From: Nitrospinae bacterium RIFCSPLOWO2_12_39_16
Lineage (GTDB): Bacteria; Nitrospinota; Nitrospinia; UBA9942
Reading direction: 5' to 3'
DNA: 39,636 bases
Assembly (NCBI GenBank): GCA_001805005.1
Contig: MHDO01000152.1
Coordinates: 1 to 39,636 of the forward strand
How positions within the stretch are numbered: the stretch's first letter is position 1; each line of letters opens with the position of its first letter. The position numbers and the translations under genes are program-made. The notes beneath the pieces were generated by a model that saw only the letters and a program-made list of their open reading frames with translations, had not been told where the DNA came from and did not search any database. Below, one piece after another: positions 5,722 through 21,875 of the stretch.

Positions 5722-7746
5722 CTATTTTGAGTCAGGATGGCATTCTATACATCTGTTATCTTCAAAAGGTTTATGAAGAATTGTATGAAGAAGATTCTTG
5801 TTTTTAGAGAAATGAGACTCGTGACAGGAGGTACAATTCCCCTCCTTTAAAGGAATATTTCCGTGCCGCTGTATAAAACCTTTATCTGTTTTTTCATGAC
5901 AATTTGAGCATAGTGTCAGGTTATCAGACAGCAGCAGATTTTCCTCTTTTGCATAGTGGGGATGGTGGCATTTCAGACACTCGCCTTCATCAACTGGCTT
6001 ATGAATAAAACTGCCAGGGGTCGCCAGTTTATCAGCAATATCTTTATGACAGGAGAGACAGAGGACTTTCACAGACCTCTTTAAATAGCCCTTTATCTTG
6101 CCTCCATGAGAATTATGACATACCATACATTTACCCTCTGATAAAGGGATATGGGTATGTTTCATGGCGGCAAGCCCTACCTTTGTATCTTTATGACAGC
6201 CATAACAGAGTTCCGGTTCGTCATCTATCAATTGGTTATTTCTATTGCTGGCATGCGAGTCATGGCAGCTATAGCAATTCCCATCTTTATATGGACCATG
6301 CACAGCATCCTTTCCCCATTCCTTTTCCATATTGGTATGGCAGTTAAAACAAAGGTCCTCCTTTTTTTGCGTCAGCATCCCGTCTATATTAGAGCCATGA
6401 GGTTTATGACACTTTGCACAATCCCCATTTTTTAGCGGAGTATGGGTGCTAAATTTCTCAGATTTTTTCTTTATTTCATTATGGCACATATAGCAGATAT
6501 TCCCTTTCTCTGCAATAAGGCTATTTTCAAAGTCCGAGGCATGAGGGGAGTGGCATGCAATACATTTTCCTTCAGCAACAGGAGTGTGCGAAACCGTATT
6601 TTTAAAATTATCTTCTTTGTGACATTTGTAGCAAAGCATTCCGCCTGCATATTTCAGCCCCTTCTCTTGTTCGGAGGCATGGGGGTCGTGACAATCGGAA
6701 CAATTGTTTTTAGTCAAAGCCGTATGAATATATTTTTTCTTATGTTCTTTTTTTTGTTTTTCATGACAGCTATAGCATAGTTCTTTTTCAGGGCTTCTCA
6801 ATCCATTCTTATAATCTGATGCATGCGGACTATGACAAGACAGACATCTGCCATCTTTGACTGGGGCGTGGATATGTGCTTTTTGAAAGGACTCTTTCTT
6901 ATCAGAATGACATTTATAACATAGGGCATCTCCTTCTATCTTCATCCCCAGAGGTAATTTTGAGTCTGAGGGATTATGACAGGAACCGCAATCTAATTCG
7001 GCAAACGGCTTGTGAATATTCTCTCTTAACAGCTTTTCATTTGACGAAGAATGTGATGCATGGCAACTTGTACAATCACTATCTTCAAAAGGGTAATCCT
7101 TATGGGCTGCTTTTAACTCTATATTCACCTTGTGACAGTCCAGACATAATTGTCTAACAGGCATGGTGAGCCCGTGGGGACTATCCGATGAGTGAGGGTC
7201 ATGACACTTTATACATCCCTCTTCCTGGGGTTTATGAATCTTTTTTTTCTGATAATCCTCTTTACTGTGACAGTTAAAACAAAGGTCATTCCCAGCTATG
7301 CGTAATAATTTCTTTGTCTTTGATGAGTGTGGACTATGGCAGATTAAACAGTCTTTCTTTTTTAACGGGTCGTGCAGGTTTTTCTTTTCAAGCCTGACTT
7401 TATCTTTTTCATGGCAGTTATAACACAGGGCAGACCCTTGATTTTTTAAATAAAGTGCACCTATGGCACCATGAGGGATGTGGCACCCTTCACAAAGCTT
7501 CTGCGTTACAGGAATATGCTGACTCTCATCGCTGGAAAATTTCTTGTATTCTTTCTGATGGCAGTCAACACATGTCCTCCTTACAATGGCCACCTTTGGA
7601 GGTATGCAACTGTAAGACGCAAGGAGCAGGAGACAAGAAGCAAGAAGCAAGAAGCCAGACTTTTTGCTTCTTGTATCTTGTTTCTTACATCTTGTTTCTT
7701 GCATCTTGTTTCTTACCTCTTGTTTCTTACTTCTTGCCTCTTGCAT
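5722..7746 (-). CDS. 26-heme cytochrome c lipoprotein (paired CXXCH repeats)
   Basis: 26 CxxCH motifs counted by hand in a repeating H-x-P...CxxCH-x-PH...LCxxCH unit; lipobox-like ASYSC. Confidence 0.93.
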   Translation of the reverse strand: MQEARSKKQEVRNKMQETRCKKQDTRSKKSGFLLLASCLLLLASYSCIPPKVAIVRRTCVDCHQKEYKKFSSDESQHIPVTQKLCEGCHIPHGAIGALYLKNQGSALCYNCHEKDKVRLEKKNLHDPLKKKDCLICHSPHSSKTKKLLRIAGNDLCFNCHSKEDYQKKKIHKPQEEGCIKCHDPHSSDSPHGLTMPVRQLCLDCHKVNIELKAAHKDYPFEDSDCTSCHASHSSSNEKLLRENIHKPFAELDCGSCHNPSDSKLPLGMKIEGDALCYKCHSDKKESFQKAHIHAPVKDGRCLSCHSPHASDYKNGLRSPEKELCYSCHEKQKKEHKKKYIHTALTKNNCSDCHDPHASEQEKGLKYAGGMLCYKCHKEDNFKNTVSHTPVAEGKCIACHSPHASDFENSLIAEKGNICYMCHNEIKKKSEKFSTHTPLKNGDCAKCHKPHGSNIDGMLTQKKEDLCFNCHTNMEKEWGKDAVHGPYKDGNCYSCHDSHASNRNNQLIDDEPELCYGCHKDTKVGLAAMKHTHIPLSEGKCMVCHNSHGGKIKGYLKRSVKVLCLSCHKDIADKLATPGSFIHKPVDEGECLKCHHPHYAKEENLLLSDNLTLCSNCHEKTDKGFIQRHGNIPLKEGNCTSCHESHFSKNKNLLHTILHKPFEDNRCIECHPDSK
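7613..7746. repeat. Inverted heptamer tandem repeat forming the signal peptide of the 26-heme cytochrome
   Basis: Minus strand: ATG, 12 x YAAGARR-like heptamers, a short spacer, then about 6 x CTTCTTG-like (reverse complement). Confidence 0.9.
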
Positions 7747-9445
7747 TAAGACCTCTCATAAAAGATTCATTTATTCTAATCTTTGAAACTGCCCTTAATT
7801 TCATAATATAATCAGACATAAGCTGTTCATACTTTTTTTTACTCAAGGATTCAATAATGCTATCTCTAACAGATTCAAAATCTCTCAATTTCCCTTCCTC
7901 TTTCCCAGTGAGCTTAATAATAATAAAATCTTTTTCAAAATTAAAAGGCCCATATATCTCCCCTACCTCCATCTCATTTAGCCCATCTTTAATATCAGGA
8001 GGCATCATATTAACATATAACCAGCCTGTATCTTCCCCTTTTGAGACAGCTGAAGTATTAGATATATCAGAGGCAGTTATATCAAAATCAGCACCCTTTT
8101 TTAACTCGCCAATAATCCTCTCCGCCTTTTCTTTTTCCTTAATCTTAATTGTGCTCATTCTGATTTTTTCAGGTTCTTTAAAGAGCTTTTTGTTATCATC
8201 ATAATATCTTCTGATTTCCTCATCATCAACTTTAATTGCAGCAGCGATAATTTTATTTTTAAAAAACCTGTTTAAGACAGCCTCCTTTGTAATTAAGAGC
8301 GAATATCTAAAGTCTTCATTTTTCTCATAATTTCTTCTATCAGCTTCCCTGTCAAGAAGCCTCTGGTTAATTATACTGTCTATAACTAATTTTTTTAATC
8401 TATCCATCTCATCTTCATCTCTTCCCAAAGGTGCTGACCTCAAGCGAGCCAGAACTTCATCCCTTTTGATATCTTCCCCTTCTACAGTCGCCGCAATCCC
8501 TTTTCCCCCATCAAATTCCTCATCCCTTTTGATGCTTTTCAGTATATCTTCATTGATGGTAATTTTTGCCGTTTCTATTAATTTTGTCAGGTATTCCCTG
8601 TTTTTTTCTCGTTCTTTCTCACTAAAGATTAACCTCTCTGTTCTTTTTTTCTCCTTGTCGGAAATTGTTTCAGCTGGCACTCTTCTCTCCTCTAATTTGA
8701 TTATATGAAAACCATGCGCTGTATTGATTAACCCGCTTATTTCCCCTTCTTTCATGCCAAAGGCTGCATCCGCTATCTCCTTTGGCAATTCATCTCTCCT
8801 TTTAAAACCCACATCACCGCCTTTTTTCTTTACCCCATCAGAGTCTTCTGATTCCTTCTCTACGAGATTGGTAAAATCAGCTCCTTTTTTTAATTCGCCA
8901 ACAATCTTCTCTCCCTTCTCCCTTTCTTTTGTAAAGAAATGACGCAATCTCACTGATTCGTAAAGGATCATATAACGATTCTTTATTTCTTCATCTGTTA
9001 CCTTGACCTTATCAATAACTTCTTCTTTTTTTAGCATATATAGAGAGAGATTGAGTCTGTAGAGTTTATAATCCCCTGTAAATTCAGGTGTCTTATCAAG
9101 ACCTATCTTAATCGCCTCCTGAACAATCAGCTTATCATCTATCATCTCATTTAGTATTTTGAGATAGTCAACATTCGCTATATCTATATGCATCTTATCC
9201 CCTATATCCTTTATTGTATGAAACCCTTCAAGTCTTTTTTTGAAATCATATTCTGTAATTGTATCATCATTTACTTTTGCAACATACCTATCTCCCTGTA
9301 GCCAGAATGTCCCTCTACTACAACCGCTCAAAAAACAAGAAACAAGAAGCAAAAAAAAAGCTGAAAGCCTTAAACTTTGAGCTTTGAACCTTGAACTGTC
9401 TCTTGCCTTTATGCCCTTGCATCTTGCATCTTGCATCTTGTTCAC
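7727..9445 (-). CDS. SurA/PrsA-like parvulin PPIase chaperone lipoprotein, duplicated architecture (OscH-like)
   Basis: Lipobox LSGC; two VA.V....I SurA-N segments; two rotamase segments (LKKGADF...S.D...KKGGDVG...GEISGLINTAHGFHIIKL; LKKGADF...DTGW...GEIYGPF). Confidence 0.88.
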   Translation of the reverse strand: MNKMQDARCKGIKARDSSRFKAQSLRLSAFFLLLVSCFLSGCSRGTFWLQGDRYVAKVNDDTITEYDFKKRLEGFHTIKDIGDKMHIDIANVDYLKILNEMIDDKLIVQEAIKIGLDKTPEFTGDYKLYRLNLSLYMLKKEEVIDKVKVTDEEIKNRYMILYESVRLRHFFTKEREKGEKIVGELKKGADFTNLVEKESEDSDGVKKKGGDVGFKRRDELPKEIADAAFGMKEGEISGLINTAHGFHIIKLEERRVPAETISDKEKKRTERLIFSEKEREKNREYLTKLIETAKITINEDILKSIKRDEEFDGGKGIAATVEGEDIKRDEVLARLRSAPLGRDEDEMDRLKKLVIDSIINQRLLDREADRRNYEKNEDFRYSLLITKEAVLNRFFKNKIIAAAIKVDDEEIRRYYDDNKKLFKEPEKIRMSTIKIKEKEKAERIIGELKKGADFDITASDISNTSAVSKGEDTGWLYVNMMPPDIKDGLNEMEVGEIYGPFNFEKDFIIIKLTGKEEGKLRDFESVRDSIIESLSKKKYEQLMSDYIMKLRAVSKIRINESFMRGLNARGKK

Positions 9446-10128
9446 TTTATTGTCTCAATTATCTCCGAAACTACTCTTTTTGTAAGGGCGCTTATTGACC
9501 TTACCCGACCAAAGCCAAACACAGTAATATAATCGTCACCACTCTTCTTGTGCCTGACCATCCATAATATCTTCCCGCTTCTGATATCAATTAATTTAAC
9601 GCGGATAACTACTACAGGGGTTGTCAACCTGCCTCCCCAATCTCCACCTGTAAATTCTTCTACAACACCGATGAAAACTGCATCAATTTTTAATCTCATC
9701 CCTAATTTTTTTAACTGTTCCATATCCATCATTTGAACAGATTTTACTTTTTCGCTAATTAGAAACTTTTCTATATTACCCTTCTCCTCTATTTGAAATA
9801 TATCGCTTTTAAATAATATGGTATTAAATGTATTTGTAACAATCTCTCCTGCCTGCCGTTTTTCACTTTCATTTACAAATGGGAGCACCCCAACCCTCTT
9901 TATTTCAAATAGTCCTTTTTCTCTATTAAGATCAGAATAAATTATAACAGAAGAAGAACATCCATGAAATAATAATGGCAATATAAGGATTGCTATCAAA
10001 AACAAAAAACTGATTAATTTACAGATTTTGCCAACACCATTCCTGCCCCTGCTTTTGCAGGGGTAAACTTGTCCCTGCGAAAGCAGAGAGCAGAAATTTA
10101 TTTCCTTATACTGATTTTTGTTTTTCAC
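9442..10128 (-). CDS. CsgG/GNA1162-like lipoprotein (OscG-like)
   Basis: Lipobox FHGC; IKRVGVLPFVN...LGMRLKIDAVFIGVVEEF...VKLIDIRSGKILW. True start may lie downstream of the repeat-derived N-terminus. Confidence 0.75.
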   Translation of the reverse strand: MKNKNQYKEINFCSLLSQGQVYPCKSRGRNGVGKICKLISFLFLIAILILPLLFHGCSSSVIIYSDLNREKGLFEIKRVGVLPFVNESEKRQAGEIVTNTFNTILFKSDIFQIEEKGNIEKFLISEKVKSVQMMDMEQLKKLGMRLKIDAVFIGVVEEFTGGDWGGRLTTPVVVIRVKLIDIRSGKILWMVRHKKSGDDYITVFGFGRVRSISALTKRVVSEIIETIK

Positions 10129-10208
10129 TCCCTTAATAACGGTTGGGTAACTTTAATCCCGAAGTGGAAATTCTTTTTATTAGCAATCAGTGAGTTTTAT
10201 AAAATGTG

Positions 10209-10814
10209 TTAATACTTTCCAAAAAATGTCGCAAATACCTTTTTTACTACTTCGTTGCTTAATTCAATCTCACCTTTTTGCTCAATTCCAAATATTGATC
10301 TCATTAAACTGCTGCCTTTTTGAGAATGAAAACCCCGCCATAATGTCAGCCCGGAATTTGACTCTACCAGTCGAAGAGATAGGGAAACAACGGCATACTG
10401 TGAGCCTCCCCCACGGTTTTGACCGTATGACTCCACTGAACCAATAAAAATCGCCTGTACCCCAAGCTTCTCAGAAATTCTCTTGATGCCCTCAATGTCC
10501 AATGCAACAAGTTCTCCCTCTCTGAACCCCATTTCCCTAAAAACATCAACTACCACCTTATTAACTTCTCCATCTTCCGCCACTTCAAAAACACCGCTTT
10601 CAAGTATATTCATTACAATCATACTCTTAAGTTTCTCGCCAGCATACTTGTCATCCGTCAGATTATTAAGAGGAAGCACTGCAACCTTTTTAATATACTG
10701 AAAGTTTACATTAGTCCTGATATATTGTTTCGGAGATGTACCGCATCCACTATGAACAACTAAAAATCCAAATAAGGGAATCAATAAAATATATTTTATA
10801 TACCATTTCTTAAT
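10209..10814 (-). CDS. CsgG/GNA1162-like lipoprotein (OscF-like)
   Basis: HSGC lipobox; KKVAVLPLNN...LGVQAIFIGSVESYG...LRLVESNSGLTLW. ORF track start is 10784 (TTG); an in-frame ATT at 10814 behind a GGGGTG RBS restores a basic n-region. Confidence 0.75.
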   Translation of the reverse strand: MKKWYIKYILLIPLFGFLVVHSGCGTSPKQYIRTNVNFQYIKKVAVLPLNNLTDDKYAGEKLKSMIVMNILESGVFEVAEDGEVNKVVVDVFREMGFREGELVALDIEGIKRISEKLGVQAIFIGSVESYGQNRGGGSQYAVVSLSLRLVESNSGLTLWRGFHSQKGSSLMRSIFGIEQKGEIELSNEVVKKVFATFFGKY

Positions 10815-10919
10815 TTCAACATCACCCCTTTCTTCATCAATTTTATTAAATAAATTGTATTAATGTATCACTTTTTTATAATTTATTGAAATATTTTCTA
10901 CCGTTTTTCTTGAATTTCT

Positions 10920-12983
10920 TCATCTGCGGATTAATAAAGCTATACTATATAAATTACTGCGGTCTCCTGTGCTGTTGTGAGTCAAAGTCGTAGTATAGCT
11001 TGAAGAAATATACAGATATCTGCTTATATTCCAGTAAATACTGCCTCCCATTGTCTCTGCGCCTGTTTGTGAAACATTGTAATTAATATTCATTTGCAAA
11101 CTGCCCGGCAGCCGTGTATTTATAGAGTAATTCTGCTTCGTCTCAGGAAGATGCTGAATATTGGCAGACAAATTTACAAACCGTGATGGAGTTATATTTA
11201 CCGTTGATGTTAGAGCTTCAGATTGAGAACTGCTCGTTTCTCTCCCGGTATCAGATGTGGAAGATGAAAATGCGCCATTAATGAGGATGTTTATGCTATT
11301 TTTCGGTATTAAGGTTAAATTTCCGTTAACTGAATTAGTTGCCGTTTTTGTTCCACTGATAAGGTCATCTGTTTTGCTTGATGTAAAACCTGTTCCAAGG
11401 TCAATACCAGAATACAATCTAAAGAACATATTTATATTTTCAGAAGTTGTTTCCGAAGTTTTATCATCCCCCGAAAGGGATTCAAAACGGCCAAGGGCAA
11501 TTGATCCATTTATAGTTTCCATTGGGTTTGTGCTTAATGAAAATGTATAATTATTTGAACCGATACTTTTGCTTGATGTTGATTCAGTTTTCTGACTTTG
11601 ATAGTTTAGAAAAAATGAGGCATATTTAGACATTGCATAGGACAATACTATCCCCTGATTGATATTCGTATCTTTGCGGTCAATAGGAGACTGTTTTGAT
11701 TCATCATAATTTATATTGTATGAAATACCCGTCTTCTCCGTTGGTCTTAGGCTCAGATTCATCCCGCCATATTGTCTATCAGTAATTGTCTCAACTGTAA
11801 CGCTGGTCTTTTTAGAGATTGACCCTATCGCCTCTATCTCCGTAACACTTATCTTCTGGGCTGAAGAATCATAAGTTGTATTTACCGCCTTAAAAAAGAG
11901 TGCATTTATAGGCACTGAAAAAACCAGTTTAAATCGTTTATTAACCTCATCATAGGAACTGTCCGATACAGTTGCAAAGCTCCAGATAAGCCCTGAGAGG
12001 TCATTACTATAATAAATATTCCATCCGAAATTCATATTTGCTATATTGCTATCCAATGTATCTATATATATATAAATAGTGTTTATTGTATCTGTATTTT
12101 TTAATTTCAAACCTATATTTCTATAAGAACCGTTTAAGTCAATTCCTGTATCCGAAGATTTATTATCATCAATTAAAGATGGGTAATCGGACAACTGCCC
12201 GTCGCCAGGCAAGGTATCTATCGCATAAAGCCCATTGCTTGCATCTTTTTTATCAGGAAAGGTCTGAGGCACACCAGATAAACTTATACTTGTAGAGGTT
12301 GAGTTTGTTACACCAACATTTGTGCTAATATTCAACCTGTTATCAAAAAAGGAGTTATTATAACTGACGGTCCCCAGATGTGTCGGGTTCTCTTGTTTTA
12401 TCTGTGAGACAAAATCATTCAATGTTGAACTGCTATAATTATACAACAAATTAAGACGTTTGATTGTGTAATCTGTGCTGGCACTCATATATGACTGTCT
12501 TGAATTAACAAGAGAAAATCTGTCTTTTGATTGCAATTCATTATAATTAAATCTCAATGAGGGAAAACCAGCAGGGGCTGTTGAGAAAATGGCATTTTTT
12601 GAGGTAGTATTTATACTGTTACCTGTTGCAAGAAAACGATCATTTACCTGATACCCAATATTTGAATTAAAATATTTATTATTCATATCCAAAAATAAAG
12701 AGGGGGCAATTGTGCTGTTTTCAGTTGAATCCACCTTGTTCTGAGATGCTCTTATATCCCCAGACAACCCCATTGTCCCTGTAATTTTTTTATTAAAAAC
12801 AAATGAATAAACCTGAGATAAAGTCGACTTGGTGGTCATCTTTCCTGCAAATTCATTCTCGCTCATTGTATAAATTACATCTCCATTCAAAGATAGACCA
12901 TCTGCAAAACTTCTATTTAAGGAACCTATCAAATATAAAATCGTTATTCCTGTTATAGTACCAACTCTTTTTATTATTCTCAC
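10920..12983 (-). CDS. Large outer-membrane beta-barrel with inserted beta-sandwich domain (OscE-like)
   Basis: Signal peptide (SFA/D); S/T/N/Y-rich alternating beta-strands at both ends; central non-barrel segment; no CxxCH. Confidence 0.7.
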   Translation of the reverse strand: MRIIKRVGTITGITILYLIGSLNRSFADGLSLNGDVIYTMSENEFAGKMTTKSTLSQVYSFVFNKKITGTMGLSGDIRASQNKVDSTENSTIAPSLFLDMNNKYFNSNIGYQVNDRFLATGNSINTTSKNAIFSTAPAGFPSLRFNYNELQSKDRFSLVNSRQSYMSASTDYTIKRLNLLYNYSSSTLNDFVSQIKQENPTHLGTVSYNNSFFDNRLNISTNVGVTNSTSTSISLSGVPQTFPDKKDASNGLYAIDTLPGDGQLSDYPSLIDDNKSSDTGIDLNGSYRNIGLKLKNTDTINTIYIYIDTLDSNIANMNFGWNIYYSNDLSGLIWSFATVSDSSYDEVNKRFKLVFSVPINALFFKAVNTTYDSSAQKISVTEIEAIGSISKKTSVTVETITDRQYGGMNLSLRPTEKTGISYNINYDESKQSPIDRKDTNINQGIVLSYAMSKYASFFLNYQSQKTESTSSKSIGSNNYTFSLSTNPMETINGSIALGRFESLSGDDKTSETTSENINMFFRLYSGIDLGTGFTSSKTDDLISGTKTATNSVNGNLTLIPKNSINILINGAFSSSTSDTGRETSSSQSEALTSTVNITPSRFVNLSANIQHLPETKQNYSINTRLPGSLQMNINYNVSQTGAETMGGSIYWNISRYLYISSSYTTTLTHNSTGDRSNLYSIALLIRR

Positions 12984-13072
12984 TCAACCTATCCTGCCTC
13001 TCCTCATGAACAAAAACCTGAAAGTGCCACAGAGATACAGAACTCTGTGCCTAATTTAAATATGCCGAAATA

Positions 13073-14566
13073 TTATTTTACTGAAACAATTCCATAAGGC
13101 TTTTTCCCTACTATAATTATCTTTTCTACAACTTCGGAGACAGGATTTATAAGTATCACCCTGTTGGAACTATAATCAGTGATATAAAGATGGTTTCTTC
13201 CTTCATCAATTGCTAGTCCTATCGGCTTACTTCCGGCATTTATGCTTCTCGTAATGACTGCAGACGACGGAATTAAAAAAGAAACCTGTCCAACACCATA
13301 ATTTGAAAGATAAATTCTGTTGTATTTTTCAGAATAAATTCCCTTTCGCGGATTAATACCTGCCTGTATTCTCCCCTTAATAGTTTTTGTAACGGTATCT
13401 ATAATTGTAATACTATCTGATTCGGCATTCAGGACATAAATGTTATTTCTTACAACTACAACATCTACAGGTGTTCTGTCAACATTTATGGTAGCCTTTA
13501 CTTCATCTGTTATAGAATCAATAACTGAAATGGAGTTTGACCCGCTGTTGGCTACATATACTTCCTGCCTTTCTGGATTGGCGGATACTCCAAGCGGAGC
13601 ATTGCCAACCCTTACACTCTTTATCTGAGATTTCATAAATGTATCTATAGCAGTAACATCATTAGACCCCCGATTCGTAATATATAGTTTTCCATGATTT
13701 CTCCTGTCGCTGTATGGAATCATAGCCATTTCAACAGGTTCAATTCCTGAACTAAATTGTATCCTGTCCCGGACAAAGTCCTGCGATGTATCAATAATTG
13801 ATATGCTATTTGACCTGGAATTTAAAACATACAACCTCTCTTGTTCCTGGCTTAAAACAAGACTTGTAGGATTCTTTTCTACACCTATTACACCAACTAC
13901 TCTATTTTCAAACCTATCAACAACCGATACATAATTTGAACCGCTGTTTGCAACATATAAAAGCAGTGTCTTTGGAGAAACTCTTTGAGATTCAATAGTT
14001 ATTGAAGGGCTAAAAAGATAGTTATTTGAGACAGATTTATCAGGTTCCCATGTTAAAAATATAGCCCTACTCTCACTGCTTCCTATACTTATAATATCCC
14101 CTTTGAGTTCTACCTCTCCATTCGGTTGAGGCAGTGCCAGTGTATGAAATTTTTCATTTCTCCTTACACTGGCATTGGAGATACGTATCATAACCCTGTC
14201 ATACTCTCCTTCCATTATATTTGATTCAGTTAACAGAACCTGATCCTTTGCTATATCAAGGGACCTTATTACAAATGGTTTTTCTGATAATTTAATCCAT
14301 CCCCCATCCCTTTGTTTGATTTCAATCTTCTCAATTGTAAAATTTATATCCTGCTGGTTAGAATTTGGAAGATAAAGGTAAAAAACCAATGTCCCCTCTG
14401 ACACCTCTTCTCTTTCAATCTTCATCCCTGTACAAGAGATAAGGATAAGAAGTAAGAAGCAAAAAACCAGAGGACAGAGGACAGAAGACAGAAGACAGAC
14501 TTCTGACTTCTGTCTTCTGACTTCTAACTTCTGGCTTCTGACTTCTAACTTCTGGCTTCTATTCAT
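13073..14566 (-). CDS. YVTN/YncE beta-propeller lipoprotein with N-terminal beta domain (OscD-like)
   Basis: Lipobox LISC; about seven repeats such as LYVANSGSNYVSVVD, LYVLNSRSNSISIID, LYITNRGSNDVTAID, VYVANSGSNSISVID. Confidence 0.87.
   Translation of the reverse strand: MNRSQKLEVRSQKLEVRRQKSEVCLLSSVLCPLVFCFLLLILISCTGMKIEREEVSEGTLVFYLYLPNSNQQDINFTIEKIEIKQRDGGWIKLSEKPFVIRSLDIAKDQVLLTESNIMEGEYDRVMIRISNASVRRNEKFHTLALPQPNGEVELKGDIISIGSSESRAIFLTWEPDKSVSNNYLFSPSITIESQRVSPKTLLLYVANSGSNYVSVVDRFENRVVGVIGVEKNPTSLVLSQEQERLYVLNSRSNSISIIDTSQDFVRDRIQFSSGIEPVEMAMIPYSDRRNHGKLYITNRGSNDVTAIDTFMKSQIKSVRVGNAPLGVSANPERQEVYVANSGSNSISVIDSITDEVKATINVDRTPVDVVVVRNNIYVLNAESDSITIIDTVTKTIKGRIQAGINPRKGIYSEKYNRIYLSNYGVGQVSFLIPSSAVITRSINAGSKPIGLAIDEGRNHLYITDYSSNRVILINPVSEVVEKIIIVGKKPYGIVSVK
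14452..14566. repeat. Inverted heptamer repeat (CAGAAGT / TCTTCTG) forming a signal peptide
   Basis: Plus strand (ACAGARG)n then (ACTTCTR)n up to the start codon at 14566. Confidence 0.88.
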
Positions 14567-15227
14567 TTTTTATTTCTTTCACCTTATCCTTTTGTAACCG
14601 CTCCATATGACACCTGTAGCATTCCCTTAAAGGAAAGGCTATTTTACCATGACACCTGCCGCAATACTCTCCACTTAAAATTTTCCACATGGTCATCTCA
14701 GGATTACCACCCTTCTTTTGAACAAAAATACCCGGATGACAAATTTTACAACTTAACCAATATGTATGAATACTGTGAGGAAAGATGACATCCGTCATAA
14801 ATTCATTCTTAGCCTTGATTGATATAAGAAGGTCAATGGGATCATCATCTTCTTGCAAACCATCAATTGATGAAAGCGGAGAAATTATACCACTCCTCAC
14901 AGCCCCTGCCCAGTCAATTAAATCGTATTTGTCCCTTGGTAGAAGTGTAAGAGGAATAGCCCTTTGCTGGAGGAGAGATTGTGCTGTCACCTCATTCGCA
15001 GTTTTATACTTATATTCGTAAAACTGCTCTATGTAGCTATTTAAGGAGTTAGAGGAAGGGTTATCCTGATTTTCAACTGCATAAGATGGTGATATTAAAA
15101 AACAGATACTTAATTTACCACAGAGGACACAGAGAAAGAGGAAAGAACAAAGACCCGACCTTAGCCGCGAAGGACACAAAGGTAAAAATAATTTTAGGGT
15201 TTTTAATCTCTGTGCTCTCCGTGCCAT
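14559..15227 (-). CDS. Triheme c7-type cytochrome with N-terminal extension
   Basis: FPHSIH..CKICH...CGRCH...CYRCH; LPRDKYDLIDW extension shared with 22434-23183. Confidence 0.88.
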   Translation of the reverse strand: MARRAQRLKTLKLFLPLCPSRLRSGLCSFLFLCVLCGKLSICFLISPSYAVENQDNPSSNSLNSYIEQFYEYKYKTANEVTAQSLLQQRAIPLTLLPRDKYDLIDWAGAVRSGIISPLSSIDGLQEDDDPIDLLISIKAKNEFMTDVIFPHSIHTYWLSCKICHPGIFVQKKGGNPEMTMWKILSGEYCGRCHGKIAFPLRECYRCHMERLQKDKVKEIKNE

Positions 15228-15306
15228 TTGTGTTTAAATTTTCTATACAAGAGCAAAAAATTGATTTTATCGCAGATAACTTTGATTTAAACAGATTTTC
15301 ACCAAT

Positions 15307-16887
15307 CTAAAAATCGCTCTCCCCCCATCCAAATTGTAATTTTTCATTTCTCTTTGCAAACTTTTCCTTTTCTTTCTTTGAGAAAGCAATTGTCTGGTTT
15401 GAGGTTTTAAATATGTTTCCTGCTTTATCCACAGCCTTAAAAGCATACATTATCTTTCCACCACCTGCTGTCACTTCTCTGTTTTCAGATATTAAAGGTA
15501 TAATTAGCTTTTTAGCTACATTCCCTCTTCCGCTTAAATTCTTTATAATTTTTGAGTCCTCGCCCAATATTACAAATTCCCACTTCTCCATCATTTCATT
15601 TTCTTCGTAGTCAAGGTTAAAAATTACCACATCATTATCATCAGTTGCTTCAGCCTCTATTTTTACTGCCGGTGGTGTTGCATCCAGTATTATCTTCTTT
15701 TGAAAAACCCCTGCATTTCCTGCAGTATCCCATACCGTAAGGTTAAGATAATATATTCCATCATCATTTCTACTTCCTGCATTATTCTCACCTCTCCACA
15801 TAAGCTGCATAGGTAATGCACCAAATCCCCTCTCTCCTCTCACAAATTTATTTTCTTTATCCACTATTTCAACTTCCCACTTTTCTATAACCTCATTTGT
15901 TTTAAGGGTAAATATAATTGAATCCTTTTTTACAAGCCCGGCAGTAACATCTTTGTCTGTTGAAACTGTTACTTCTGGCGATACTGTATCAACCTTTACC
16001 TCCCCTACTGAAGGAAAATGAGAAATCTTATCATCAGACAGCACAGCAATAATATCTACAGGATATAAGCCATCTGCATAGGGAACGGTAATCTCGCCAT
16101 CATAATAATCACCATCTCCATCCTTCAAATCAAATTTCATTTCACCTATATAAGCCTGAACCTTCACTATTTTTTCTACAACAGATATAATTTTGACTGA
16201 TACCTTTGCAGACTTCCCCCCTCTGACAATTGCGGGAGAAATCTTTAAGCTCCCTATCTCAAAAAGATTATCATCTCTATTTTTCAAGAGATATTCCCTT
16301 GGTATCCCACCCACAATATTGCTAACAGCTACCGATCCAAGCTGAACAATCAATTTCACTCTACCAATACCAAGCAAGCCGGCAAAATCGCTTCCAGCAT
16401 AGGAAACGGTGTCCATCCATATTATTGAACAATCCCTTGTCCCAACAAGGCGAAGAGTTAATCCTACATATATTTCATTACTAACATTGGAATACTGGTC
16501 AATTGAACCTAAAACCACCGCATCAACTCCAAGCTCACGATTTAACTCAAGCGTTGTTATTCTGTCAATAAAACTCGTATTCCTAATTCTTCTCTTGGTC
16601 AAAAATTTATCCACATCTTCATATGGAACCAATTCAAACCCTCTTTTTTCAAGTTCTTTCTGAAGCAATGAATCTATAATTGCACGAGCATCTAAATTTC
16701 CAGAAATGTTTGCCATAGGAAGGACCACAATCCTATCTATTTTATGAACATCCTTTCCCACTTCTGCCTGAACAGCGGATGCAAAAAACAGTAAGCAGTA
16801 GGCAGTAAGCAGTAGGCAGTAAGCAGTAAACAAGAGATAAGTGGTCTTGCTTCTGGCTTCTGGCTTCTGACTTCTATCTTTTATCAT
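15307..16887 (-). CDS. CsgG/GNA1162-like domain fused to Ig-like (FlgD/Big-type) repeats
   Basis: RIVVLPMAN...ELGVDAVVLGSIDQY...LRLVGT N-domain, then VDTVSPEV, LMWRGEN..G....DGIY.L.LTVWDTAGN, LDATPP, AVDKAGN Ig-like motifs. Confidence 0.72.
   Translation of the reverse strand: MIKDRSQKPEARSKTTYLLFTAYCLLLTAYCLLFFASAVQAEVGKDVHKIDRIVVLPMANISGNLDARAIIDSLLQKELEKRGFELVPYEDVDKFLTKRRIRNTSFIDRITTLELNRELGVDAVVLGSIDQYSNVSNEIYVGLTLRLVGTRDCSIIWMDTVSYAGSDFAGLLGIGRVKLIVQLGSVAVSNIVGGIPREYLLKNRDDNLFEIGSLKISPAIVRGGKSAKVSVKIISVVEKIVKVQAYIGEMKFDLKDGDGDYYDGEITVPYADGLYPVDIIAVLSDDKISHFPSVGEVKVDTVSPEVTVSTDKDVTAGLVKKDSIIFTLKTNEVIEKWEVEIVDKENKFVRGERGFGALPMQLMWRGENNAGSRNDDGIYYLNLTVWDTAGNAGVFQKKIILDATPPAVKIEAEATDDNDVVIFNLDYEENEMMEKWEFVILGEDSKIIKNLSGRGNVAKKLIIPLISENREVTAGGGKIMYAFKAVDKAGNIFKTSNQTIAFSKKEKEKFAKRNEKLQFGWGESDF
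16788..16887. repeat. Heptamer repeats (GCAGTAR and GCTTCTG) forming a signal peptide
   Basis: cagtaag cagtagg cagtaag cagtagg cagtaag cagtaaa ... gcttctg gcttctg gcttctg acttcta. Confidence 0.88.
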
Positions 16888-16897
16888 CTCGTCTCTC

Positions 16898-18043
16898 CTA
16901 TTGATTATGACACTGCTGGCATGTATCTCTCATCATTGTGCCAGCCCCCCCTGATGCTGTCGGTGCCCCAAATATTAAATTAGAATGATTTGGAGAACCA
17001 TGCGACCTGTGACAGGTAAGACAAAACGGCTGTTCATCGCCGCCACTGTCAAGCCCATCCGGATTTATAGCACGCACCCGATTAAAACCAGTTATTGATG
17101 CAAAATTTGCCGGGACTGTATGCCCATTTCCAACCCCAACTGAAATCTTACCTACAGGATGACGAACCCATTGAGTATCTGTCCCGCTATCGCCTGTAAC
17201 ACTGCCACCCAACTTCCCACTTCCATAACCAATATCATCACCACCATACCCGTTAGAATTATAAAATTTTACATGACATTTACCACAAAAACCAGCTATT
17301 TGTTTAGTACTACTCCTAAATGTCATGTTAGATGTGGAATATTGGTTGGCAGGGTTACTCCCATCACAATTCCCATCTATAACCGCCTGTGCAATTGAGG
17401 ATATACCATCCCATACTCCATTATTATAGGTTACTATTTTATATGAATCCGCTGGTGTGCTATCTCCCGGTTCTCTGAAAGAGGGGTCTAATGGTTCGGG
17501 CCTAAAATTTCTGTAATTACTATTTCCATGCTGGTCATGGCAGTATATACAGCTGAAAACAGGACCGTATTTTGTCTGTGCTGTAGTCCAGTCACTCCCT
17601 ACATAACCCGGTGGCTTTATCCCTGTCAAATCAACTCCGATACTGTGCCGTTTATCTTCGTCAGGTGTTCCGCCTGTATTAAAATCACCTGCCGAAGCGT
17701 TATAAATAGGACTAAACAGGTCAGGTGCACCGATATTAATAGGATCTCCATCATGACAGTATTTACAAAGATTAACCACTGAATCTGCCCTAAGTAACTT
17801 TTCGTAAGTATTTATTCCTCCACTATAAATCAAAGATACACTACCCTGCGTGCCATGCATAACATGACACTGGGCACATGCAAGCGTAGTTTCAGCAGGA
17901 ATACCTGATTTATGATAATCTCCGGCAAAGGAATCATTAGCAAACAGTAAGCAGTAGGCAGTAAGCAGTAAGCAATATATAGTTTTTTTCTGCCTACTCC
18001 ATACTGCATACTGCCTACTTCTATTTGTTTCTTGTCTTTTCAT
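16898..18043 (-). CDS. OmcS/OmcT-like hexaheme cytochrome c (paralog 2)
   Basis: Six CxxCH (CAQCH, CKYCH, CIYCH, CGKCH, CLTCH, CQQCH) with OmcS-like spacing: CxxCHxMH, CHDQHG..NYR, RHPV, CHRSHGS, terminal CxxCH. Confidence 0.85.
   Translation of the reverse strand: MKRQETNRSRQYAVWSRQKKTIYCLLLTAYCLLFANDSFAGDYHKSGIPAETTLACAQCHVMHGTQGSVSLIYSGGINTYEKLLRADSVVNLCKYCHDGDPINIGAPDLFSPIYNASAGDFNTGGTPDEDKRHSIGVDLTGIKPPGYVGSDWTTAQTKYGPVFSCIYCHDQHGNSNYRNFRPEPLDPSFREPGDSTPADSYKIVTYNNGVWDGISSIAQAVIDGNCDGSNPANQYSTSNMTFRSSTKQIAGFCGKCHVKFYNSNGYGGDDIGYGSGKLGGSVTGDSGTDTQWVRHPVGKISVGVGNGHTVPANFASITGFNRVRAINPDGLDSGGDEQPFCLTCHRSHGSPNHSNLIFGAPTASGGAGTMMRDTCQQCHNQ
17944..18043. repeat. Inverted heptamer repeat (GCAGTAR / YTACTGC) forming a signal peptide
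   Basis: cagtaag cagtagg cagtaag cagtaag ... ctgccta ctccata ctgcata ctgccta. Confidence 0.86.
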
Positions 18044-18044: not shown

Positions 18045-18923
18045 TTATTCCACCTTCTTAAACATACTAACCCTTCCCCTGCCTTTTTCTACTACATAAA
18101 AGTTCTCTCCCTTAAAATCAATGCCAAGGGGGTAATAGAGGTTTTCCCTGGAATTTCCATAAATACCAAATCCACTCAGTCTTTTTCCTTCATCATTAAA
18201 ACCTGTCACCCGATGCTTAAAGGCATCAACTACCCATATCATACCGTCATCATCGACTTTTATTCCAGAAGGCATAGAAAAATTCTGTTCCCCTTCCCCA
18301 ATATGCCCAAAACCTGCAAGGTATTCGCCTTTTGTATCAAATATCCTTACGACAGGGTCAGCACTCATTACCGACACATAAATCTTTCCACTCTTTGCTG
18401 CAATACCGCCAATTGATTTAAACAGATTTCTGCCGCCAAAGTTAAATTGATATTTCCCATCTTTATCAAATACACAAATCTTTAAAGAATTTCTATCAAC
18501 AACAAGAAAACCTACCCCATCCATAACCGCCATCTTACCTGGTGTAAATCCCTCATAAGGAGGCTCAATGCTTCCAACCTTTTCTCCCCTGATATTAAAA
18601 ATCTCTATATAATTTTTACCTTCTCCACTCATATAGATATAATTATTTGAAACAAAAATATCAATGGGGGATGATACCCCCTTTTCTTTTCCAAACCGAA
18701 AAACAGGCGTCCCATCAAGTTCAAAAATATAGATATTGTTCCCTCCATTATCAACAACATATAGTTCATCATCTTCTATAAAAATTGAGGATAATCCCTC
18801 AAATCTATATTCATCTGAAAATCTGTCAATAGCGCTGATAAAATAGAAACTCGAAGGTGCGGATTCTACCTTAGCTATAAGAATAATCAGAATTCCACAT
18901 GTTAAAAAGAATCTTTTCATCAT
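18045..18923 (-). CDS. NHL-repeat beta-propeller, exported
   Basis: Signal peptide; LYVVDNGG..IYIF...G..FRFG, FSMPSGIKVDDDGMIWVVD repeats. Confidence 0.88.
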   Translation of the reverse strand: MMKRFFLTCGILIILIAKVESAPSSFYFISAIDRFSDEYRFEGLSSIFIEDDELYVVDNGGNNIYIFELDGTPVFRFGKEKGVSSPIDIFVSNNYIYMSGEGKNYIEIFNIRGEKVGSIEPPYEGFTPGKMAVMDGVGFLVVDRNSLKICVFDKDGKYQFNFGGRNLFKSIGGIAAKSGKIYVSVMSADPVVRIFDTKGEYLAGFGHIGEGEQNFSMPSGIKVDDDGMIWVVDAFKHRVTGFNDEGKRLSGFGIYGNSRENLYYPLGIDFKGENFYVVEKGRGRVSMFKKVE

Positions 18924-19035
18924 AAGTAATTAAGAACAAAAACCCGAACAAAAAATAAAATCATTAGACAGAATAAACAGGATTTTTTTATTTTTCTTTT
19001 CTTTAGTTATCTTGTAAATCTTGACTATATATTAA

Positions 19036-19051
19036 AGCAAAGAATATGCCA
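19036..19051 (-). promoter_or_regulatory. sigma54 -24/-12 promoter
   Basis: Minus strand TGGCATATTCTTTGCT (GG-N10-GC), about 110 bp upstream of the NHL gene start at 18923. Confidence 0.75.
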
Positions 19052-19057
19052 AAACAA

Positions 19058-20521
19058 TTACTTTCCAATCAAAAACTCCACTCTTCTATTAATCTTTCTC
19101 CCCTCTTCAGTGTCATTATCGGCAATTGGTCTTGATTCTCCAAAGCTTATAGTGATAATTCTTGAGGGGGCAATACCCTTATTAGTGAGGTATGCCTTTA
19201 CCGCATCTGTTCTCGCCTGTCCAAGTTGCAGATTATTAACTTCTGCCCCCATATTATCAGTATGCCCGGTGATATGCAATTTATATGTCGGTTTCTTTAT
19301 CAGCAACTCGTATAATTTATCTAAAAATTCAAAGGAAGATTTTTTTATAATAACCTCCCCACTTTCAAATTCCAGATTTTTGAATACATCTGCCAATATA
19401 TCTTCCTCCTGCTTTTCAATTTTTATCGGCTCAATTTCTTTCTCAACAGACTGTGGCTCAACTACTTTCTCAATAACAGGCTCAACCTTTATTGGTTCGG
19501 TTGCCTTACCCCCCTCGCTCAATCCCTCTCCACTTGTGGAAGAAGGGAGGGGTGAGGGGATAGATTCAACAGTTTCTGGCAGTTTACCCTTACTAATTTG
19601 CTGAACAACCTTTTCTTCTGGCATAACAAGCTCATATACCTGAACCCTTGCATTACCCGTATCACAAACATATATCTTGCCATTTTCACCTATTTTAACA
19701 TCCGAGGGCCATGAAAGGTTTTCAGGGTTTCTGCCGGCCCCTCCAAACTCTGCTATTGGTTTACCATTCCTATCAAAGATTATTACAACAAACCTGTTTG
19801 TATCTACAACAAATAATCTCTCTCCATCTGTATCAATATTTGACGGCATACTAAAACCGCCGAACAAGCTTGATATAATGCCAAACATGAAAAGAAATTT
19901 ACCATCTTCCTTATTATAAACTGATACACGAAATAGTGCCGGGTCAAGAAGATAAAACCTCTCTGAATCTGTAGTAATTGCCTTTGCGTTCAAAAACTCC
20001 CCTTCATTACTACCCTTTTTCCCAAACTGAAATAAAAATTTACCTGCACTATCAAAGACAATAATCCTGCTTAATCTTCCATCACCTATATAAATATAGC
20101 CATTTTCATCTATGTGCAGCGACTGGATAGATAAAAGTGTGAAATCTGGCACAGAAGAAAGGTCGAACTTCCTCAGATATTCTCCCCTATAGTTAAGGAT
20201 ATTTATCTCACCTGCATCAGATAAATAAATATTCCCATCCTTTGTTACAGAGAAAATCTGTATAGAATTTGCAAGTGGGATTTTAAAGACTGCTATACCA
20301 TCTTCATTGATAATTATGATTTCTTTGCTCTTGCTGGCAACATAAAGCTCGCCCTGCTGATGGTCAATATGAAGTTTTGAAGGAGCTCCCCCTCCCATTG
20401 ATTTTGCTGTGTAAGAGGTAATATGTCTTACATCAATCTTTGAGGCGGCTTCTATATCAACTGATGCAAATATCAATATAGCTATGACAAAAAATATTGA
20501 ACGGGTTATATATATATACAT
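19058..20521 (-). CDS. NHL beta-propeller fused to OmpA-like peptidoglycan-binding domain
   Basis: NHL repeats, P/E/K-rich linker, C-terminal GHTDNMG...LGQARTDAVKAYL...GESRPIADNDTEEGRKINRRVEF. Confidence 0.88.
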   Translation of the reverse strand: MYIYITRSIFFVIAILIFASVDIEAASKIDVRHITSYTAKSMGGGAPSKLHIDHQQGELYVASKSKEIIIINEDGIAVFKIPLANSIQIFSVTKDGNIYLSDAGEINILNYRGEYLRKFDLSSVPDFTLLSIQSLHIDENGYIYIGDGRLSRIIVFDSAGKFLFQFGKKGSNEGEFLNAKAITTDSERFYLLDPALFRVSVYNKEDGKFLFMFGIISSLFGGFSMPSNIDTDGERLFVVDTNRFVVIIFDRNGKPIAEFGGAGRNPENLSWPSDVKIGENGKIYVCDTGNARVQVYELVMPEEKVVQQISKGKLPETVESIPSPLPSSTSGEGLSEGGKATEPIKVEPVIEKVVEPQSVEKEIEPIKIEKQEEDILADVFKNLEFESGEVIIKKSSFEFLDKLYELLIKKPTYKLHITGHTDNMGAEVNNLQLGQARTDAVKAYLTNKGIAPSRIITISFGESRPIADNDTEEGRKINRRVEFLIGK

Positions 20522-20528
20522 TTAGAGC

Positions 20529-20563
20529 AAAAAAAAAGGGAAGCGTCCCCGCCTCCCCTTTTT
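20529..20563 (-). terminator. Rho-independent terminator after the omcS-like gene
   Basis: Minus strand AAAAAGGGGAGGCG-GGGA-CGCTTCCC followed by a T9 run. Confidence 0.82.
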
Positions 20564-20582
20564 GAAATTAAACCAAACTTCA

Positions 20583-21800
20583 TTATCTGTTATGACACAA
20601 CTGACATCCTTTTGTTGATGAAACAGCATTACCTGTCTGACTACCTGTCCCAACAGCGGATGTATAATCCCATCTTAGATTATCATTATAAGGACCGCCA
20701 TGTGCAAAATGACAGGATAGACACATAACCCTATCGGTTGAATTATTTGTTTTGTAAAATACCCTATTAGACGATGAAGCACTTGCAACAGGAAGGTAGT
20801 AACCTGCTGTTGTAACATCATAATTAGTAGTATCTATGATAGTTACACCTGCCCCAGAAGTTGTTGAACCATCGCCAGCCAATGTGTTATTAACAGGATG
20901 CCTTTTCCAATCATCACCTGAGGCATTGGTCGTTACTATAGCCTCATGCCAGTTATCATGACACTGGGCACACCATCTTGAAATGCCATTTGACCCTCCA
21001 CCATAGGAATTGCTATTTGCAGTATCATCAGCAGCTGATCCTGTAGTAGACGCAGTTTTGATTACCGGCCATATATTATTCTTATTTGATGCCCCGCCTA
21101 TTGCAAGTATAGTATCCTGAAAGTTTGTCCCATTAATACCTCCAACCCAACTCGTATGGTCTGCATCAGTAAGTTCAACACCTGCATTACTTCCTGCATT
21201 TGTTGCACTCATCCTCAGATTTCTGAACTTATTTATAGCAGTATCGGCTGCATTGGCAGTTCCATGAGGGTCATGGCAAGATGTGCATGAGAAACCTGCT
21301 ATTTGCGTACTATCTGCACTACCCGGCGGTATGACATTTGCGAGACCAATGGAATGCCCTCTTCCAAGCGCAGTACTGCCTCCATCTGTACTCAATGTAA
21401 AATCTGCATTAACCTCTGGAAAGAAGTTACCACCAGCACCTATACCAGTCAGGTGATCCGTCTGTGTCCATAGTGTGCCAGTTGCAAGGTGCACCTTTGG
21501 TGGTTTTACATTCTTTGGCGCAAATTGAACATCTCCATTAGGGCCTTGATCAGAATGACACTGCAGACAAAGCCTGTGAATATTTTCTCTGCTGGATACA
21601 TCCGCCCTAAGCAAAACGAGTGAGCCGCCGGATGCACCACCAAGCGTATTAGTACCACCTCCCTGGCTGTTATGCATTGTATGACAGTTACCGCATGTCA
21701 AATCACCTGCACCTTTATGAACTGCAAAAACCGATGTATTTATTAATAAGAAACCAGTAATCAAAACAACAACTCCTAACCATTTTTTCATGTCTTTCAT
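20583..21800 (-). CDS. omcS: OmcS-like hexaheme cytochrome c, candidate nanowire subunit
   Basis: Signal peptide then VHKGAGDLTCGNCHTMHNSQGG (OmcS begins FHSGGVAECEGCHTMHNSLGG); six CxxCH; CTSCHDPHG, SRWCAQCH, RHPV, VMCLSCHFAHG, terminal CQLCH; 405 aa, G/S/T/N/A-rich. Confidence 0.87.
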   Translation of the reverse strand: MKDMKKWLGVVVLITGFLLINTSVFAVHKGAGDLTCGNCHTMHNSQGGGTNTLGGASGGSLVLLRADVSSRENIHRLCLQCHSDQGPNGDVQFAPKNVKPPKVHLATGTLWTQTDHLTGIGAGGNFFPEVNADFTLSTDGGSTALGRGHSIGLANVIPPGSADSTQIAGFSCTSCHDPHGTANAADTAINKFRNLRMSATNAGSNAGVELTDADHTSWVGGINGTNFQDTILAIGGASNKNNIWPVIKTASTTGSAADDTANSNSYGGGSNGISRWCAQCHDNWHEAIVTTNASGDDWKRHPVNNTLAGDGSTTSGAGVTIIDTTNYDVTTAGYYLPVASASSSNRVFYKTNNSTDRVMCLSCHFAHGGPYNDNLRWDYTSAVGTGSQTGNAVSSTKGCQLCHNR

Positions 21801-21875
21801 AATATTTTCCTCCTTTCTTTTCTTTATGTTTATTTTGTAATTTTATATTGCCTGTAACCCTTGCCTTGAATAATA

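Follow-up and report, generated by a model that had tools for sequence, protein, structure and literature searches.

Here we describe apparent signal-peptide leaders built from short tandem repeats in six genes of an uncultured groundwater bacterium, Nitrospinae bacterium RIFCSPLOWO2_12_39_16. The window, i.e. the whole stretch of DNA that was analysed, spans 39,636 nt (contig MHDO01000152.1), and the genes of interest lie in a minus-strand run at positions 5722–18043. We refer to the six, all of them on the minus strand, by their start positions: 7746, 9445, 14566, 15227, 16887 and 18043. As judged by Pfam, all six products belong to envelope families: three c-type cytochromes, a SurA-like peptidyl-prolyl isomerase (PPIase), an NHL/YncE lipoprotein and a GNA1162/LpoB-like protein. 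In gene-strand orientation, all six open reading frames (ORFs) begin with a purine-rich arm followed by a pyrimidine-rich arm, just as a preliminary description of the locus had it. Tandem Repeats Finder (TRF) detects arrays in five of the six leaders, all of period 7, and reports no row for 15227.

Three of the leaders run into a lipobox-like site. Gene 7746 (5722–7746) encodes a multihaem cytochrome c of 674 aa with 26 CxxCH motifs (Pfam Paired_CXXCH_1, E 9e-144). Its purine arm (7660–7744; unit CAAGAAN, 12.1 copies) would supply an n-region with a 7-aa period and its pyrimidine arm (7614–7659; unit CTTCTTG, 6.6 copies) the h-region; the two arms pair in a predicted RNA fold of −48 kcal/mol (z −5.0 relative to dinucleotide shuffles, as for all z values below). 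The likely lipoprotein cysteine is residue 47, in SYSC, and the cysteine ahead of an xPP[RK]V motif is kept in the orthologues of three related genomes (G002, G003 and G006). Gene 9445 (7727–9445) encodes the SurA-like PPIase (572 aa; Pfam Rotamase and SurA_N). TRF finds three period-7 arrays at 9329–9440, namely 9416–9440 (CAAGATG, 3.6 copies, with ATGs in three frames), 9368–9396 and 9329–9360 (a TTTCTTG-type pyrimidine arm); the hairpin is weak (z −2.0) and the leader ends in LSGC (Cys 42). The orthologues of 9445 have leaders of other unit families, followed by a conserved cysteine and then NGG. Gene 14566 (13073–14566) encodes the NHL/YncE beta-propeller lipoprotein (497 aa; Pfam NHL, YNCE and DUF4382). 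Its purine arm at 14498–14560 (nine copies of CAGAAGN, also scored by TRF as three copies of period 21 with 95% matches) is translated as RSQKLEV-type heptads, the CTTCTGT-type pyrimidine arm at 14468–14499 forms the start of the putative h-region, and the two pair with a predicted energy of −58.7 kcal/mol (z −9.2); the leader ends in LISC (Cys 45).

The other three leaders run into an AxA-type site. Gene 15227 (14559–15227) encodes a cytochrome c7-like protein of 222 aa with three CxxCH motifs (Pfam Cytochrome_C7). It carries a 17-nt inverted repeat, 82% complementary, at 15119–15135 and 15207–15223, with about two 8–9-nt units per arm (z −3.2); the unit belongs to the ACACAGAG family, the commonest 8-nt family of the genome (14 arrays), and cleavage is predicted after SYA (residue 50). 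Gene 16887 (15307–16887) encodes the GNA1162/LpoB-like envelope protein (526 aa). The two arms of its leader arrays (16789–16875), a purine arm at 16845–16875 (CAGAAGC) and a pyrimidine arm at 16789–16829 (CTTACTG), come from different unit families and are non-complementary (z −2.0); cleavage is predicted after VQA (residue 41), and the orthologues retain an AQA or VQA site behind other repeat families. Finally, gene 18043 (16898–18043) encodes a multihaem cytochrome of 381 aa with six CxxCH motifs. Its leader arrays (17945–18019) consist of a purine arm at 17990–18019 (GCAGTAN) and a pyrimidine arm at 17945–17974 (TTACTGC) that fold together at −39.4 kcal/mol (z −7.5), and cleavage is predicted after SFA (residue 40), which would give a mature protein starting with GDYHK. 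Exactly at the places where an in-frame TAA or TAG would come, the purine arm of 18043 has TAT; members of its unit family between genes do contain TAA or TAG. The three cytochromes among the six, putative ‘nanowire parts’ in the preliminary description, match generic Pfam multihaem families only (Paired_CXXCH_1, Cytochrome_C7 and an MtrC/MtrF domain). We also note overlaps between neighbouring genes: at 7727–7746, 9442–9445 and 14559–14566 the stop codon of the upstream gene overlaps the start codon or purine arm of the next one (ATGA/GTGA overlaps), and the purine arm of 7746, in another frame, encodes the C-terminal residues of the SurA-like protein.

The 7-nt periodicity of five leaders exceeds that of all 2000 synonymous-codon resamplings and of all 2000 codon-order shuffles, so the alternative that codon-shuffled signal peptides would look equally periodic can be set aside for these five. 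For 15227 the best period is 9, with a score that 71 of 2000 synonymous resamplings and 1 of 2000 codon-order shuffles equalled or exceeded. The periodicity resides in the DNA and not in the protein; the 7-aa period of the peptide is visible in the translations of the array-bearing leaders. The preliminary description had further proposed that the arms are reverse complements of each other and fold the mRNA into a hairpin directly after the start codon. This is upheld for four leaders, where arm pairing is convincing (z −3.2 to −9.2) and a hairpin is predicted at that position; it fails for 9445 and 16887, in which the arms pair poorly.

The proposal that the repeats are translated as the n- and h-regions of signal peptides is borne out by the translations and by the conservation of the sites that follow, and we regard recruitment of the repeats as export-signal coding sequence as well supported. 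The start codon lies upstream of the purine arm in all six genes and its context is identical in same-genus orthologues; by eye, an apparent Shine-Dalgarno sequence precedes it in four (7746, 14566, 16887 and 18043), and none is evident for 9445 and 15227. All six leaders have lysine or arginine in their repeat-coded heptads (QEARSKK, RSQKLEV, SRQ). In each of the six proteins the pyrimidine arm encodes the sole hydrophobic N-terminal segment. In the three cytochrome genes the maximum Kyte–Doolittle value over an 11-residue window is 2.4–3.0 and falls within this arm; the h-regions of the other three leaders were judged from their translations and pass a crude signal-peptide rule. The lipobox or AxA-type sites themselves are not repeat-coded, and the cysteine or AxA position is retained in orthologues. 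The idea of a ‘frame-proof start’, with ATG-bearing units providing a start in every frame, was rejected as a general rule, as it holds in only 3 of 12 alternative frames.

We compared the leaders with those of 26 orthologous copies from G001, G002, G003 and G006, which belong to the same family (f1) as the window’s genome (G000), and from G018, which belongs to another family. Within f1 the mature parts are 61–97% identical and the cleavage region is kept, and the n- and h-regions are not; the expectation that only the signal region is replaced among orthologues thus held in the alignments. Nineteen of the 26 leaders are repeat-built, often with other unit families, combinations or copy numbers, and seven are ordinary, among them those of 18043 and 14566 in G018, of 7746 in G006 and of 15227 in G002, G003 and G006. 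Since the ordinary leader of 15227 is found in another genus as well as in part of the same genus, the repeat leader that this gene has in G000 and G001 is derived. The five orthologues of 18043 align from about residue 18–22 on, and in the G006 copy the start codon lies between the arms, leaving the purine arm in the 5′ untranslated region and the pyrimidine arm alone translated. The arms follow each other as R1 R2 Y1 Y2 in the orthologues of 16887 from G002 and G003. The n-region of the G018 orthologue of 16887 (L029) is read from a 9-nt array of ACCGCAGCA type, a period that is frame-neutral. When residues 1–40 of the 14566 protein, a short low-complexity query, were compared with a protein database, nine candidates were returned, of which its own cluster alone passed.

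The replacement has sharp edges. Between the G002 and G003 orthologues of 7746, a block of about 140 nt (L015:1454–1595 in G002, L013:3386–3525 in G003) is only 33–67% identical per 30-nt window, and it begins just after the Shine-Dalgarno site and ends just before the lipobox cysteine codon. The upstream flank is 87–100% identical per 30-nt window, except for windows of 0.67 and 0.8 at its 5′ end, and the downstream flank is 100% identical. We found no near-identical donor for the swapped blocks in the five genomes searched: the best other match to the 142-nt G002 block is 75% identical over 133 nt, and the 140-nt G003 block has one other match, in G006, with 78% identity over 51 nt. Two dispersed array families make up the G002 block, and most of its listed matches (17–44 per genome in five genomes of the family) fall on its first 40 nt, an array of ACACGAAT type, with 85–95% identity. 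A mobile element, as suggested in the preliminary description, finds no support here. The unit families are nevertheless common to many loci and to the genomes of one family, but there is no fixed consensus and no donor-like copy of the kind expected for an in-frame mobile element of the Rickettsia palindromic element type, and copies within one unit family vary in unit number, loop and flanks.

The same elements exist outside coding sequence. In the window, a non-coding look-alike at 39271–39352, between a CheB-like and a response-regulator gene, consists of CACAGAGA and TCTCCGTG arms (39271–39301 and 39322–39352; 31-nt arms, 81% complementary), in agreement with the earlier claim of intergenic hairpins; further non-coding arrays lie at 23806–23866, 30713–30794 and 38171–38209. 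Across G000 (1.88 Mb in 157 contigs, 38.8% G+C), TRF returned 2134 rows, 604 of them of period 7, which after merging gave 1672 arrays of period 5–12 and 395 neighbouring pairs within 60 nt. In 89 of the 395 pairs the units are reverse-complementary with at most one mismatch. When ORFs are taken from a crude longest-ORF caller, these 89 divide into 17 within the first 240 nt of an ORF, 5 internal ones, 32 that overlap an ORF end and 35 in intergenic DNA. The share of bases occupied by arrays is 5.2% between genes, 2.3% in the first 150 nt of ORFs and 0.72% in the remainder of ORFs. The order of the arms is strikingly one-sided: 47 of the 89 complementary pairs are purine-then-pyrimidine, 42 are compositionally mixed and none is pyrimidine-first, and over all 395 pairs the counts are 73 for purine-then-pyrimidine and 2 for the reverse. 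As a palindrome keeps its purine-then-pyrimidine order on both strands, this polarity is a property of the element and not of gene direction. The coding strand has fewer stops (30 of 51 frames open, against 15 of 51 on the opposite strand), but the difference becomes weak once the frame in use is set aside (13 of 34 against 15 of 51).

Which genes carry an element at their 5′ end is informative. Three of the 17 cases are genes of the window; we submitted 13 others to Pfam and left out C62:3019–3297, where the ORF looks spurious. Ten of the 13 have a match, nine to typical envelope families (M23 peptidase, SurA, LptA, LptE, BamD-like, PBP4, DegP-like, SNase and polysaccharide deacetylase) and one to a generic TPR, and three have none. 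By comparison, seven genes whose start, mostly preceded by a Shine-Dalgarno sequence, lies downstream of an element all belong to cytoplasmic or inner-membrane families (sulfite/nitrite reductase, H+-pyrophosphatase, FAD oxidase, FYDLN_acid, fumarase, Mur ligase and prepilin). This split implies that the element is part of the ORF at genes that need a leader and stays out of it at genes that do not. With the crude signal-peptide rule we found 45 ORFs with an h-region that is at least half array-encoded, comprising 17 of 59 lipobox-like and 28 of 501 SPase (signal peptidase) I-like ORFs, and the same peptides recur on unrelated proteins. Two further observations concern individual loci of G000. 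At C113:4945–5130 and C95:4560–4700 there are composite hairpins of a nested kind, with the arms of one unit family on the outside and those of another between them. Two envelope-type ORFs, C117:2062 and C95:4625, lack an in-frame ATG, GTG or TTG ahead of the h-region. In one of them ATA follows a strong Shine-Dalgarno sequence; the other has ATGs in other frames only and could be an off-frame allele or an assembly error.

The CAGAAGN pattern in three copies occurs 20–121 times per genome in all eight genomes of family f1 searched, which represent four genera, and outside f1 it occurs 1–3 times in 3 of 112 other genomes of the phylum; this one unit family therefore marks a single family-level lineage. 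The named relatives of the 18043 protein (80–86% identity) come from groundwater metagenome-assembled genomes labelled Nitrospinota or Nitrospinae. In small samples, single stretches of 4–20 kb from 20 relatives, array density per 10 kb is 0.8–15 in f1, 5.5–5.9 in f4, 2.5–4.6 in f5 and 0–3 in f2, f3, f6 and f7; f4 and f5, on these same samples, also show purine-then-pyrimidine pairs, made of other units. Contigs from other sequencing runs (Logan; four runs placed on the window out of 20 that contain the stretch, with no RNA run listed) show a steep climb of summed contig depth at the repeat bins 14259–14619 and 16786–17146, from about 13 to 485 in run X2 and similarly in the other three runs. 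The climb arises because the unit families sit at many loci and in related organisms, and it means that the same families are very abundant in those communities.

We consider it likely that these lineage-wide, fast-evolving arrays serve as Sec signal-peptide coding sequence at envelope genes and that the leader block turns over under loose constraint. The anatomy of the leaders, their periodicity, the replacement among orthologues, the link to envelope families and the lineage restriction are all direct observations, and the following mechanism would tie them together. The lineage carries a large and rapidly evolving population of short-period arrays, mostly of 7 nt and some of 6 or 8–10 nt, each with a purine-rich arm and then an often complementary pyrimidine-rich arm, and most of them fill spacers between genes. 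At envelope genes the element lies instead in the ORF, with a conserved start codon before it and a conserved cleavage region, itself free of repeats, behind it. Since 7 is not a multiple of 3, each arm is read in three frames in turn, and its translation repeats every 7 aa. Purine-rich codons have A or G in second position and yield K, R, Q, E and S and hence an n-region; their pyrimidine-rich complements have T or C there and yield L, F, C, S, V and A and hence an h-region. On either strand such an element would thus provide a Sec signal peptide (SPase I or SPase II type) ready for use, requiring besides itself only an upstream start and a downstream cleavage site. Because the leader would be cut off after export, selection should be limited to an open frame, a net-positive n-region and a hydrophobic stretch, and the block would otherwise be free to undergo slippage, homogenisation and wholesale replacement; loose selection on a removed leader would in turn account for rapid turnover beside a conserved mature protein. 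The turnover probably reflects largely neutral tolerance and not a switch, and the hairpin predicted just after the start may affect translation or mRNA stability.

Several points weigh against this account. Every genome used is a metagenome assembly, and repeats common to several loci tangle assembly graphs: contigs of the four other runs end at 14499, 16815–16846 and 17974–17999, and G001 has an NN gap within one leader. The ORF caller and the signal-peptide rule are crude, the 501 SPase I-like ORFs surely including membrane proteins, and the seven comparison genes with a start downstream of an element, picked by eye among 11 of 67 non-5′ elements, are a biased sample. The n-regions are unusually long (16–30 residues), and translation could start at an internal ATG, for instance at codon 15 of 7746 or codon 4 of 9445. 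A hairpin of −39 to −59 kcal/mol after the start would, going by the predicted folds, be expected to hinder initiation, which is awkward for a purely neutral view. Finally, cleavage of the leaders and their role in directing export are themselves predictions from the amino acid sequences.

A bolder version, which we put forward tentatively and hold to be considerably less probable, is that the arrays are a self-renewing, lineage-specific pool of portable leader cassettes that are actively swapped, by ectopic recombination or templated insertion, between ribosome-binding and cleavage sites, so that export signals are continually rebuilt from non-coding hairpin DNA. As complementary codons have opposite hydropathy, one hairpin reads charged-then-hydrophobic on both strands; if cassettes were indeed portable, such a hairpin could give an export signal to a gene on either side. 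This would open a general way for secreted proteins to be born de novo, in which the hairpin would also act as a gate on the translation of the leader so gained.

It is also possible, though we think it doubtful, that the elements are primarily intercistronic hairpin devices, i.e. partial or bidirectional terminators, mRNA stabilisers or translation gates, and that leader coding is a by-product tolerated when spacers collapse. This is compatible with a role in signal-peptide coding and differs from it in which function is selected. Array density peaks in intergenic DNA (5.2%). The 75 complementary pairs away from contig ends are distributed as 64 between tandem genes, 8 between convergent and 3 between divergent ones; of the 829 spacers that measure at least 60 nt, 129 are divergent. 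Bidirectional intrinsic terminators have an A-rich side, a stem and a T-rich side, a layout that the 73-to-2 polarity resembles, and a role at the RNA or DNA level could explain both this polarity and the preference for spacers that hold the 3′ end of a gene. The stable folds predicted for four of the six leaders and the nested outer and inner arm pairs at two loci are in line with it as well. Against these stand the two leaders with poorly complementary arms and the R1 R2 Y1 Y2 order in the G002 and G003 orthologues of 16887, which cannot make a simple nested hairpin. Rfam covariance models at the gathering score have no match in the whole window, a promoter and terminator scan matches the innermost few pairs of two elements only, and a terminator within an operon gene would cut off its own transcript.

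We judge it improbable that the leaders are phase-variable contingency loci, in which 7-nt arrays slip during replication and the gain or loss of a unit shifts the frame and toggles each envelope protein, as the CTCTT repeats of Neisseria opa do. The idea, raised as a possibility in the preliminary description, has its attractions: besides the opa precedent for a switch by leader repeats (PMC3960869), the unit length is not divisible by 3 and the arrays of five of the six leaders lie in the 5′ coding region; some of them have perfect repeats (CTTGCAT, 3.6 copies at 100%; a 14-nt unit at 16789–16828, also at 100%); and the two G000 ORFs at C117:2062 and C95:4625 have no in-frame start upstream of the h-region. 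Moreover, 9 of the 12 alternative frames of the six leaders have no usable start after the last stop, so a one-unit slip would usually abolish the exported form. The orthologues speak against it. Of the 19 repeat-built leaders, 18 can be read in frame and without a stop from an upstream ATG and the nineteenth contains an assembly gap, whereas freely tolerated off states would put about two thirds out of frame. The sole copy-number difference seen between close genomes is one 9-nt unit, in frame, between G002 and G003, and G000 and G001 have equal unit numbers in the 14566 leader. Most arrays are imperfect, with 69–96% matches. Contigs of other runs show the same copy number: one run has a contig spanning 7560–11058 that bridges two arrays, and a second run has contigs at 7400–7796 and 7767–11416 that bridge one array each, all without differences. 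These contigs bridge the arrays at 7614–7744 and 9329–9440 only, and as minority variants are invisible in contigs, low-frequency switching would be compatible with their agreement.

An artefact is very improbable, be it ORFs over-extended into upstream non-coding repeats, with true starts downstream, or leaders that are assembly chimeras at shared repeats. The ORF caller did over-extend into elements at cytoplasmic genes (C113:5071, C149:33062, C26:9282 and C96:12445), 16 of 96 frames (17%) across intergenic purine-then-pyrimidine elements are open by chance, and contig graphs cross-link repeat loci; yet export is required of all six proteins and no segment downstream of the repeats could serve as their leader, the conserved cleavage region directly follows the repeat in all orthologues, and the split between elements inside and outside ORFs tracks that between envelope and cytoplasmic families. 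The independent assemblies of five genomes have in-frame leaders at the same six positions and in the same gene order, contigs of other runs reproduce 7400–11416 exactly, and random repeat collapse would break the frame two times in three. A link to Y1 transposases of the RAYT type (associated with repetitive extragenic palindromic, REP, sequences) was rejected on present evidence: PF01797 is present in 20 of 31 relatives including array-poor families and missing from G001, no arrays lie beside the three Y1_Tnp matches in G000, and copies of the elements vary within a unit family, unlike the fixed imperfect palindrome of REP/RAYT systems.

The remainder of the window (18045–23586 and 23877–39636), as read from translations, holds more multihaem cytochromes and NHL beta-propellers, with ordinary leaders; the ORF at 18045–18923 matches Pfam NHL and DUF5128. 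By the same reading, these regions encode a protein with an OmpA-like C-terminal part, a histidine kinase together with a response regulator of sigma-54 type, and a set of chemotaxis genes whose products resemble CheR, CheW, a methyl-accepting chemotaxis protein, CheA and CheB.

The usual description of signal-peptide evolution is one of point substitutions under loose constraints. In the present case, a whole lineage appears to assemble signal peptides from tandem repeats of non-triplet period, which occur as non-coding hairpins too, with wholesale replacement of the leader between near-identical genomes and the mature protein left untouched. If our reading of the arrays as signal-peptide coding sequence is right, they offer an illustration, natural and on the scale of a genome, of the small amount of sequence information that suffices for an export signal, of how complementarity in the genetic code (A versus T at the second codon position) can turn a hairpin into an n- plus an h-region, and of how non-coding repeats are taken up into coding sequence. 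In practical terms, gene callers and signal-peptide predictors will mis-start or mis-score such genes and assemblies will break at the repeats; for export assays, the leaders supply natural variants that are ready to hand. Both the strict polarity and the sharp edges of the swapped blocks suggest an underlying mechanism.

How do the elements compare with known systems? A search of the literature, with supplements outside its scope, found no description of signal peptides made from paired tandem repeats, nor of such repeats in Nitrospinota; the available part of the Nitrospina gracilis genome paper mentions neither. Palindromic elements of Rickettsia were reportedly found by Ogata et al. in 2000 to be inserted in frame into protein-coding genes. 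Like the elements described here, they are palindromic, repeated intergenic DNA that also occurs within ORFs and is translated. The Rickettsia elements, however, are copies of a consensus of roughly 100–150 bp and occur anywhere in the protein, whereas ours have no fixed consensus, vary in unit number and are always in the leader, so that their product is probably cut off. The short tandemly repeated repetitive (STRR) sequences of cyanobacteria are heptanucleotide tandem repeats, mostly intergenic and lineage-specific. They share with our arrays the genome-wide families of 7-nt units that lie mostly between genes in one lineage, but differ in phylum and in units, and we know of no description of them as paired purine-then-pyrimidine arms or as signal-peptide coding sequence. 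REP sequences and bacterial interspersed mosaic elements (BIMEs) are similar in being abundant short intergenic hairpins between the genes of operons, but are fixed imperfect palindromes and not tandem arrays. PARCELs (for palindromic amphipathic repeat coding elements) are coding DNA with dyad symmetry that specifies 25-residue domains in mature proteins, are linked to membrane-targeted proteins and have spread by horizontal transfer (PMC2996958). Dyad symmetry in coding sequence and an association with membrane-targeted proteins are thus common to both; in contrast to PARCELs, the elements described here have a 7-aa (7-nt) period, are confined to a putatively cleavable leader and comprise a charged and a hydrophobic half.

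The closest precedent is the (CTCTT)n coding repeats in the leader-peptide region of Neisseria opa (PMC3960869). There, too, a pyrimidine-rich tandem repeat of non-triplet period lies in the 5′ coding region, forms part of the leader and is hydrophobic in every frame. The opa repeat has one arm and one unit family, is limited to one gene family and is a proven high-frequency on/off switch. The elements described here, for which the orthologues include no out-of-frame alleles (18 of 19 in frame, one with a gap), instead have two arms, one for the n- and one for the h-region, are drawn from many unit families, serve dozens of unrelated envelope genes and exist as non-coding DNA as well.

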